From a virus, in IMG/VR virus record IMGVR_UViG_3300017643_000016: a stretch of DNA of 36,099 bases; one strand, 5' to 3'. This document shows positions 34,684 to 36,037 of the stretch, piece after piece. How positions within the stretch are numbered: the first letter of the stretch is position 1; each line of letters opens with the position of its first letter. Position numbers and translations under genes: made by a program. The notes below the pieces were generated by a model. The model saw only the letters and a program-made list of their open reading frames with translations. It made no database searches and had not been told where the DNA came from.

Positions 34684-35297
34684 TCTCCGAAGAGGATCTG
34701 CTCGATATTGCTGACCATGCAACCAGATCGCTGATCAAACGCGTTTTGATCGGGGCGAGGATCAGTGATGCAGAGGCAGATGATATGCGTCAGGCGGCTG
34801 TTTTGAAACTGCTGTTGTATGGTCAAAAGCATGATCTGAATATCGGCATGAGGCCTTTGCTTTTCGTGATTGCCAAACATGCGGCATTTGAGTGGATTTA
34901 CTGGTGGCAGCATAATATCCGTAATTCGGCCTATTTTTGCGGAAACAGAATGGCAAACTCTGAGCAAAGGAAATCAATCCAGGTAATCAGTCTCGATGGT
35001 ATTGAGGATTCCGGTTATCAGCCGGCCGCAGAAATTCCAGATTTAGCAACAGAGCCTCTTCCGAAAGAGGTGAATGACCAACTTTATAAAATCCTGTGCG
35101 ATGAACGAAAAAAGAAAGGAATGCGCGGAACAATGGCGGCGGTAAGGGATATTCGAATCATCAATTATGTGGTCATGGGCTATAACAATACCGCCATTGC
35201 CAACGAACTGAATTCTTCTGGAAGGGATATCAGCCATTACAGGAGATCGATTCAGAAAAGGCTTTCTAATCATTTGAATAAGCGAGTTCGTTCATGA
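34680..35297 (+). CDS. Sigma-70 family (ECF-like) sigma factor-like protein
   Basis: Region-2-like segments are DAEADDMRQAAVLKLL and LLFVIAKHAAFEWIYWW. The region-4 HTH-like segment is GYNNTAIANELNSSGRDISHYRRSIQKRL. The GTG start overlaps the csf3 stop, and the stop overlaps the next ATG. Confidence 0.5.
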   Translation: MISEEDLLDIADHATRSLIKRVLIGARISDAEADDMRQAAVLKLLLYGQKHDLNIGMRPLLFVIAKHAAFEWIYWWQHNIRNSAYFCGNRMANSEQRKSIQVISLDGIEDSGYQPAAEIPDLATEPLPKEVNDQLYKILCDERKKKGMRGTMAAVRDIRIINYVVMGYNNTAIANELNSSGRDISHYRRSIQKRLSNHLNKRVRS

Positions 35298-36037
35298 TCG
35301 ACGAAAATATTTATTGGCAATACTCAAAACTGGATTCGTTCAAAAGAAAGGTCAACAACGCCGAAAGTTTGATCAATCTAGCCTTCTCTAAGGCGAGAAA
35401 TTGGTACGTTTCTACGTCTTGGGGGAAAGACAGTATTAGCCTGGTCGATATGGTAAGGAATATAAGACCGGAAATAGAAGTCGTGTTTATCGATGGTGGG
35501 ATCGAGCTATTAGAGATAGATCGTGAATCTATCGAGAGTTATGTGAAAAAAAATAAGATAAATCTTATCCATTTGAAGTGGAGTAAATTGGATTATCTTA
35601 GAGAAGAAAAGAAAAATGAAAAAGGAGATGCAAAGAAGATTCTTTATAATTCAATGTTTGCCCCGTTGAATAACTGGCTGAAAATCCGTCCAGATATCAA
35701 TGGTGTTTTTATGGGGCTGAGACGAGAAGAAAGCAAAATCCGGTATTTATCAATTGGGAAATTTGGCCCATTGCATGAATATCAGTCTGGAAGCAATAAG
35801 GGATTATGGAGATCGTTGCCTTTATTTGATTGGAAGACCATCGAGGTTGGTGCTTATGTGGTCTCTCGAGGACTGCCAATTTTAGATATCTATAAGAAGA
35901 TGGGGTTCGAAGCAAGGTCCGGTATGTTCGGATTTGGCTCTTCTCAATTCGGCAGATTCGCCTATCTGAAGCATTATTACCCGGATTTATTCAATAAATA
36001 CGCTGCTGAGTTTCCTGAAATAAGAAAGGAAATATGA
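35294..36037 (+). CDS. PAPS-reductase-fold PP-loop protein (cysH-like type IV-B accessory), cysteine-free
   Basis: The PP-loop variant is STSWGKDS (canonical SGGKDS), and GLRREESKIR matches the family's R..ES motif. The 247-aa translation contains no Cys. The gene is A/T-rich. Confidence 0.7.
   Translation: MIDENIYWQYSKLDSFKRKVNNAESLINLAFSKARNWYVSTSWGKDSISLVDMVRNIRPEIEVVFIDGGIELLEIDRESIESYVKKNKINLIHLKWSKLDYLREEKKNEKGDAKKILYNSMFAPLNNWLKIRPDINGVFMGLRREESKIRYLSIGKFGPLHEYQSGSNKGLWRSLPLFDWKTIEVGAYVVSRGLPILDIYKKMGFEARSGMFGFGSSQFGRFAYLKHYYPDLFNKYAAEFPEIRKEI

Follow-up and report, generated by a model that had tools for sequence, protein, structure and literature searches.

CRISPR-Cas systems of type IV-B have a near-invariant association with cysH, as has been noted before (bioRxiv 10.1101/780106; PMC7937560). 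The CysH-like proteins of these systems lack the catalytic cysteine, carry a PP-motif and group separately from the housekeeping enzymes (Taylor et al. 2021, PMC8175902). The same study (PMC8175902) proposed AMPylation as their probable activity, with a nucleic acid in the type IV-B complex as one possible substrate. Virus-borne type IV-B systems with CysH-like genes have also been described (bioRxiv 10.1101/2023.08.24.554615), and a paper of September 2026 still termed the function of type IV-B unclear (PMC13676074). The gene considered here belongs to this group. It lies on the + strand at positions 35294-36037 of the IMG/VR virus record IMGVR_UViG_3300017643_000016, a stretch of 36,099 nucleotides that is called the window throughout.

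The encoded protein, or query, is a member of the CasCysH family of type IV-B CRISPR-Cas, and is almost certainly not a sulfate-assimilation enzyme. An earlier note on this DNA, made from the letters alone, had read it as more likely an adenylating or ATP-alpha-hydrolysing enzyme than a reductase. That interpretation coincides with the published CasCysH hypothesis. The locus is a new, fairly divergent, phage-borne CasCysH, for which the loss of the cysteine and the AMPylation idea are already in print. What is added here is the assignment of its motifs to the CysD type, the mapping of the lost cysteine, a C-terminal extension specific to the family, and the observation that PHROGs labels such genes misleadingly as sulfur auxiliary metabolic genes.

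The CysH-like gene and its protein

The features of the gene are the following.

35294 to 36037, + strand: CasCysH, last gene of the type IV-B cassette; 247 residues, cysteine-free, with the 3′-phosphoadenosine-5′-phosphosulfate (PAPS) reductase fold PF01507
35417 to 35434, + strand: PP-loop S42-W-G-K-D-S47, with which ATP pyrophosphatases bind pyrophosphate; a CysD-type loop, identified by conservation
35720 to 35743, + strand: motif R143-R-E-E146-S147-K-I-R150, in which RREES is residues 143-147; identified by conservation and alignment with CysD
35915 to 35953, + strand: R208...F219-G220, a relic of the reductase catalytic peptide (RSGRW...ECG); identified by alignment and conservation
35954 to 36034, + strand: family-specific helical C-terminal extension L225-K226-x-Y-Y229-P230...P241; identified by conservation, an AlphaFold2 (AF2) model and hhalign

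The open reading frame (ORF) is intact and real, and its translation gives the 247-residue product. Pfam matches this product to PAPS_reduct, PF01507 (E 4e-13; score 50.2 bits, cut-off 22.5). The earlier note described a protein with the PP-loop SWGKDS and without cysteine, and it was right on both counts: the loop occupies residues 42-47, and the translation has 0 cysteines. The protein is basic, with an isoelectric point (pI) of 9.4 compared with a family median of 8.8. In a second assembly, JGI 3300012889, these 10.8 kb recur at 99.9% identity, and the CysH-like protein differs by a single conservative change, L72I.

Full absence of cysteine was considered as a significant signal by itself and rejected. 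Cysteine makes up 1.04% of the residues in the phage's proteins, which gives a probability of about 0.075 that a protein of 247 residues has none, and 8 of the 33 other phage ORFs are also cysteine-free. The informative point is the lost catalytic cysteine, rather than the count of zero overall.

Such a cysteine might have been hidden by a wrong reading frame, as the earlier note allowed. A cysteine-bearing C-terminus is excluded, because the other frames contain stops, the C-terminus is conserved and folded, and the circular genome is complete. Both alternative frames over the 3′ end of the ORF are interrupted. The last 27 residues are kept in relatives, with P230 present in 136 and P241 in 129 of 154 full-length family representatives, the set over which all conservation counts in this text are taken. 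The AF2 model has a pLDDT (predicted local distance difference test) score of 95.1, and the C-terminal helices 221-228, 230-239 and 242-246 are modelled at 92-95.

Absence of the reductase catalytic cysteine

Reductases of PAPS and of adenosine-5′-phosphosulfate (APS) work without ATP; their loop is degenerate, and they require a C-terminal cysteine. Where this cysteine would lie in the query depends on the alignment. In an APS-type alignment the equivalent residue is F219, at a spacing of 11 residues from R208, as in the compared proteins P0005 and P0006. Fe-S cysteines (CC...CxxC) are seen in these two proteins, and the query has none. In an hhalign alignment with E. coli CysH the equivalent is Y229, with the ECGLH peptide falling on YYPDL (Y228-Y229-P230).

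Across the family neither position is a cysteine site. At column 219 the residue varies (R, H, Y, Q and others); it is cysteine in only 4 of 154 rows and phenylalanine in the query. Column 229, tyrosine in the query, has no cysteine in any row. None of the columns among the 154 rows is a conserved cysteine. The commonest cysteine lies one or two residues N-terminal of P176 (115/154), where the query has Ser-Leu, and only three of the 154 rows are wholly cysteine-free. Two of the query's four closest relatives, P0003 (L001:10001-10759) and P0008, do have a cysteine at the position equivalent to the APS-reductase catalytic residue, in the form HCG and ECG respectively, and their SxGKDS loop is intact.

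Family models give the same picture. None of the NCBIfam cut-offs is reached for cysH TIGR00434 (36.9 against 165.1), CysH NF002537 (37.8 against 154), PAPS_reductase TIGR02057 (28.2 against 254.2) or APS_reductase TIGR02055 (17.9 against 235.3), and the CysD model NF003587 is likewise not reached (23.7 against 195). A FastTree phylogeny sets the true reductases, represented by E. coli CysH and two APS-reductase-like proteins, apart from the 154-row family in a clade of their own (support 92). The query falls in a small, well-supported clade with P0002, P0003, which is Csf3-adjacent, and P0008. FastTree is a quick method, and the published CasCysH sequences are not part of this tree. With no cysteine at F219 or Y229, no Fe-S cysteines, low scores and a separate clade, the earlier note's view that the protein is not a PAPS or APS reductase is well supported.

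An intact PP-loop

A profile search covering 1.84 billion representatives returned 2,486 relatives at E <=1e-3, and 68 at <=1e-30. The nearest known relative, P0002, is 55% identical to the query, and most family representatives are 22-32% identical. A further search with a 4-row alignment added four viral loci of low identity. Mean column identity across the family is only 22%. Nine positions are nevertheless invariant in all 154 rows: S42, G44, K45, D46, S47, E146, R150, P176 and Y200. Near-invariant positions are G141, R143 (151/154), R208 (151/154) and P230, followed by S147 (137/154) and G220 (120/154).

The PP-loop of the family reads S-x-G-K-D-S, and that of CysD reads SIGKDS. The corresponding loops are SFGIQA in E. 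coli CysH and SFQSED or SFQAED in the APS-reductase-like proteins. E146 aligns with a glutamate in CysD (RRDEE), and with a glutamine in E. coli CysH and the two APS-reductase-like proteins (RREQS). This qualifies one statement of the earlier note, which had assigned an R-x-x-E-S motif to the PAPS-reductase fold. The motif is present, as RREES, but it does not have the reductase form R-R-E-Q-S, and its second glutamate is shared with CysD. The alignment with CysH and with type IV-B relatives that the note had called for thus shows the catalytic cysteine replaced and the PP-loop invariant.

Comparisons of the whole protein do not separate these families. The top profile match among solved structures is CysD (1zun_A, E 1e-26), with PAPS reductases close behind. 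In hhalign comparisons, the E. coli proteins CysD (8e-21) and CysH (6e-20) come out level. The AF2 model has fold Z-scores of 16-17 to APS and PAPS reductases, to the PAPS domain of human FAD synthase and to CysD, again a tie. The idea that the family is closer to CysD than to CysH overall was rejected on these ties in hhalign and fold; the motif positions alone favour CysD.

Proposed chemistry and its alternatives

In this superfamily, the PP-loop grips the beta- and gamma-phosphates of ATP, and a substrate oxygen attacks the alpha-phosphate. In CysD, the small subunit of ATP sulfurylase (sulfate adenylyltransferase), the attacking substrate is sulfate, pyrophosphate leaves, and no cysteine is required. 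FMN adenylyltransferase, another ATP-using adenylyl-transferase, is also independent of cysteine. Since FAD synthase is such an enzyme, it provides a precedent for adenylyl transfer in the same fold.

The query is probably an ATP-dependent adenylyl-transferase or ATP pyrophosphatase rather than a reductase, with a probability of roughly 0.6. Adenylyl transfer appears the likeliest chemistry because the PP-loop and E146 match those of CysD, and the reductase scores lie far under their cut-offs. In this model the intact PP-loop would bind ATP-Mg. An oxygen of the substrate would then attack the alpha-phosphate of ATP, releasing pyrophosphate and leaving the substrate linked to AMP, much as CysD acts on sulfate and FMN adenylyltransferase on FMN. 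For the earlier note's proposal of an adenylating or ATP-using enzyme, the support comes from motifs only, namely SxGKDS in 154 of 154 representatives together with the invariant E146 and R150.

What would receive the AMP is a matter of speculation. The acceptor could be the RNA or target nucleic acid that the Csf1-Cas11-Csf2-Csf3 complex binds; alternatively, it could be a small molecule formed on engagement of the complex. In a more specific version, which is quite unlikely as it stands, the acceptor would be the terminal phosphate of the RNA in the Csf filament or of the bound target. The product would be either a nucleic acid with an AMP cap (App-) or a signalling nucleotide, and in this phage the activity would be wired to the dedicated, translationally coupled GerE/sigma-like regulator encoded next to the gene. 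If that version were true, type IV-B would be a device by which phages and plasmids mark nucleic acids or signal under RNA guidance, not an immune nuclease. A structure prediction of the complex between CasCysH, Csf1 (residues 1-205) and Csf3 gave a score of 0.00, the mark being 0.32, and speaks neither for nor against contact.

Several points weigh against adenylyl transfer. The CysD and CysH profile values (8e-21 and 6e-20) and the fold Z-scores are tied, and because profiles and folds are equidistant, the link to adenylyl-transferases hangs on a few motif positions. The conserved residues that bind the nucleotide would also fit a non-catalytic nucleotide sensor. The query may furthermore differ in detail from the rest of its family, since it has Ser-Leu where 115 of 154 members have the cysteine before P176.

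One rather unlikely alternative shares the first step of this chemistry and differs in its outcome. An enzyme of the TilS, QueC or GMP-synthetase type would attach AMP to a base in Csf-bound RNA or target DNA, through a carbonyl or carboxyl group, and an amine (ammonia, lysine or similar) would then displace the AMP, so that a stable modified nucleobase is left instead of an AMP-linked product. Such chemistry has no need of cysteine, and a basic protein of pI 9.4 would suit it. The query weakly matches TilS (NCBIfam E 0.0073; PDB 1wy5, 1e-3) and QueC (PADLOC 0.0065; PDB 3bl5, 1e-3), and the fold Z-scores to GMP synthetase and TilS are 11-14. These families nonetheless score far under CysD, CysH and FAD synthase. 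The loci read share no conserved gene for a glutaminase or amine donor, and the query has no attached RNA-binding domain such as THUMP or PUA. The nucleotide sensor mentioned above, a subunit that would sense or hold an adenine nucleotide and thereby regulate or stabilise the Csf ribonucleoprotein, is a little less likely again. The conserved residues are those that contact the nucleotide, which binding alone could keep, and none of the family members has a reported activity. Yet all catalytic elements of an ATP pyrophosphatase, that is the loop residues S42, G44, K45, D46 and S47 with E146 and R150, are invariant in a family whose mean column identity is 22%, and pseudoenzymes usually shed some of theirs.

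A genuine sulfur enzyme is very improbable. It could be a viral auxiliary metabolic cysH, or a sulfur inserter like DndC or SspD with its thiol supplied in trans. The match to PF01507 speaks for it, as do the cysteines of P0003 (HCG) and P0008 (ECG) at the catalytic-equivalent position, and the nearest phage families in PHROGs are filed as "auxiliary metabolic gene, PAPS reductase". However, a protein without cysteine lacks the means to form a thiosulfonate intermediate, a persulfide or an Fe-S cluster. The CysH and APS-reductase scores are far under their cut-offs, DndC gives no match at E 0.01, and SspD reaches only 0.0097. The PP-loop keeps the K-D-S that reductases have lost, the protein falls in a separate clade from them, and the operon to which its gene belongs is one of csf genes rather than of sulfur genes. 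Adenylyl transfer, or ATP pyrophosphatase activity more broadly, is the preferred reading, and the PHROGs label of a sulfur auxiliary metabolic gene is misleading for the CasCysH family.

The type IV-B cassette

The CysH-like gene closes a run of tightly packed genes on the same strand, in the order int-csf1-cas11-csf2-csf3-HTH-cysH, where HTH stands for a helix-turn-helix protein. The genes that precede it are the following.

30929 to 32053, + strand: tyrosine integrase, directly 5′ of the csf genes of the cassette (PF00589 7e-10, PF02899 5e-5)
32055 to 32861, + strand: csf1, type IV large subunit, with an N-terminal cysteine finger (PADLOC Csf1_0_IV 2e-23; TIGR03114 8.5e-6)
32668 to 33033, + strand: cas11, type IV small subunit (PADLOC Cas11_1_IV 3e-29)
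33033 to 34007, + strand: csf2, type IV Cas7 (PADLOC Csf2_0_IV 7e-81; TIGR03115 1e-15)
33994 to 34683, + strand: csf3, type IV Cas5 (PADLOC Csf3_0_IV 4e-44; TIGR03116 2e-14)
34680 to 35297, + strand: 205-residue protein with a borderline C-terminal GerE/LuxR-type HTH (PF00196, residues 156-196)

The presence of csf1, cas11, csf2 and csf3, with no array and with no Cas6 or DinG in the cassette scans, identifies the layout as type IV-B. No CRISPR-like repeat family or array occurs in the window. Neither DinG nor Cas6 appeared when the six cassette genes were scanned with Pfam, NCBIfam and PADLOC, the remainder of the window not being scanned for these families. The same three collections found no GTPase among the cassette genes; CysN, the GTPase partner of CysD, was not scanned for across the whole window. 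Promoter and terminator scans around the cassette gave nothing above chance.

The 205-residue protein is joined to its neighbours by short overlaps. The csf3 stop and the HTH start share GTGA, and the HTH stop and the cysH start share ATGA. Its PF00196 match (E 5e-5, 23.3 bits) lies just under the cut-off of 23.5. The protein has no match in PDB, PHROG or PADLOC, and a sigma-70 region 2 could not be confirmed in it. No comparable regulator gene stands between csf3 and cysH in the other seven type IV-B loci read; all that the Rhodovastum plasmid carries there is a small, uncharacterised gene of 85 residues.

Base composition changes toward the end of the cassette. The cysH-like ORF has a GC content of 38%, compared with 49.5% for the window, and the bin 35001-36000, at 39.8%, is the lowest of the genome. 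The low GC suggests that the cassette end, 34680-36037, has a history different from that of csf1-csf3.

At the other end, the csf1 frame overruns the cas11 ORF by about 200 nt (32662-32861) in a different frame. The final 60 or so residues of Csf1 are acidic and of low complexity, with no counterpart in aligned Csf1 homologues.

Related loci

The csf genes of type IV adjoin the cysH-like gene in all eight relatives with readable context, and the gene order varies. These loci are the contigs L001, L002, L003, L012 and L014, the Rhodovastum plasmid RHOApd, a Frondihabitans plasmid and the Skermania phage SPI1. Three further contigs (L011, L013 and L015) are too short and stand outside this count. 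In the plasmid and phage references Pfam is nearly blank for the neighbouring genes, which were identified by the PADLOC models for type IV.

A Cas6 is said to be a rare exception in type IV-B. The phage contig L002 (Logan SRR19631115) encodes a clear one at L002:11435-12169 (PF01881, 9.5e-33), and its order is csf1, a 482-residue gene, the cysH-like gene, csf3 and then Cas6. No CRISPR array was found in the 20 kb of L002 that was read.

The gene at the csf2 position is long in two of these contigs, which are related phage loci, with 521 residues at L001:8386-9951 and 482 residues at L002:8550-9998, and no separate gene of cas11 size precedes it. The 521-residue protein of L001 has only a weak RAMP match, at its C-terminal end. 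Both genes may be Cas11-Csf2 fusions.

The carrier phage

The virus that carries the cassette is represented in full. The remaining features of the window that bear on it are two.

35973 to 36099: direct terminal repeat of 127 nt, an exact repeat identical to 1-127
92 to 130, - strand: attP-like core of 39 nt, identical to the 3′ end of a tRNA-Pro(CGG) gene

Because the 127-nt terminal repeat is exact, the window represents a complete circular phage genome of 35,972 bp. On the circular map the attP-like core starts 26 nt past the cysH-like stop (36064 onward in the terminal repeat). Exact matches to the 39-nt core were found in four genomes. In three of them, which are Bacteroidetes, Ignavibacteriae and unclassified bacterial metagenome-assembled genomes (MAGs), the match is the 3′ end of tRNA-Pro(CGG); in the fourth, a Gemmataceae MAG, no tRNA was found at the match. 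Identity stops abruptly on the 5′ side, toward the anticodon stem of the tRNA, as expected for an attP core. Positions 92-130 on the - strand are probably the attP core. The tRNA-Pro matches also give hints of integration into tRNA-Pro and of a host like Bacteroidota or Ignavibacteriota. From the positions of the integrase and the attP-like site, the type IV-B cassette is cargo of a temperate phage, placed between int and attP.

A second small gene of the GerE/LuxR HTH type lies at 125-385 on the + strand (86 residues as listed; PF00196, 1.8e-10). It is directly beyond the attP-like site, and thus two LuxR-type HTH genes flank the cysH-like gene. Upstream of the cassette, at 25831-27856, are overlapping genes for a C5 (PF00145) and an N6/N4 (PF01555) DNA methyltransferase, according to the gene calls of the twin contig L003.

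Significance

The locus is a compact and complete natural example of the family, with a 36-kb temperate phage, a 247-residue cysteine-free enzyme and a high-confidence model. Since it has no redox-sensitive residues, the protein would be convenient for biochemistry. Experimental design may be aided by the features mapped here, which are the CysD-type loop with E146 and the R208...G220 relic followed by an ordered C-terminal helix bundle.

Comparison with known systems

Several known systems share part of their structure with the query. CysD has an acidic residue at the position of E146, and the PL..W and PLY motifs are common to both proteins. It also has a C-terminal region of about 90 residues that is missing from the query. 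E. coli CysH (1sur, 2o8v) and the APS reductases (2goy, 7lhs) share with the query the motifs GLRxExSxxR and P-x-x-x-W, and also the R208...G220 skeleton of the C-terminal peptide. In these true reductases, however, the PP-loop is degenerate rather than intact, a glutamine replaces E146, and the ordered helical C-terminal extension is not present.

The eukaryotic FMN adenylyltransferase/FAD synthase domain (8rom, 3g6k) has fold Z-scores of 17.1 and 14.9 and a profile E of 2e-13. It is a distant relative, at 14-19% identity, and the query shows no sign of a flavin-binding site. DndC, SspD and BrxP, known from phosphorothioation and BREX type 4, resemble the query in combining a PP-loop ATP-pyrophosphatase domain with a setting of defence or mobile elements. 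The BrxP match is weak (PADLOC 7e-8, 29 bits), and the PADLOC model for DndC gives none at E 0.01. The chemistry of DndC and SspD depends on cysteine, whereas the query has 0 cysteines and the window holds no dnd, ssp or brx partner genes.

The closest likeness is to the CasCysH proteins of type IV-B, such as that of the Mycobacterium sp. JS623 plasmid (PMC8175902, PMC7937560, bioRxiv 10.1101/780106). They share with the query the PF01507 fold, a PP-loop like SGGxDS and the loss of the catalytic cysteine. Their systems and the query locus are alike in setting too, with csf1-cas11-csf2-csf3, no CRISPR array, DinG or Cas6, and a mobile element as carrier. The same layout is found in the public records of Skermania phage SPI1 (Orf40-44), the Rhodovastum plasmid RHOApd and the Frondihabitans plasmid. 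From a typical CasCysH locus this one differs in that its protein is wholly cysteine-free and lacks the cysteine before P176, a GerE-HTH gene is inserted in the cassette, and the carrier is a complete 36-kb temperate phage.

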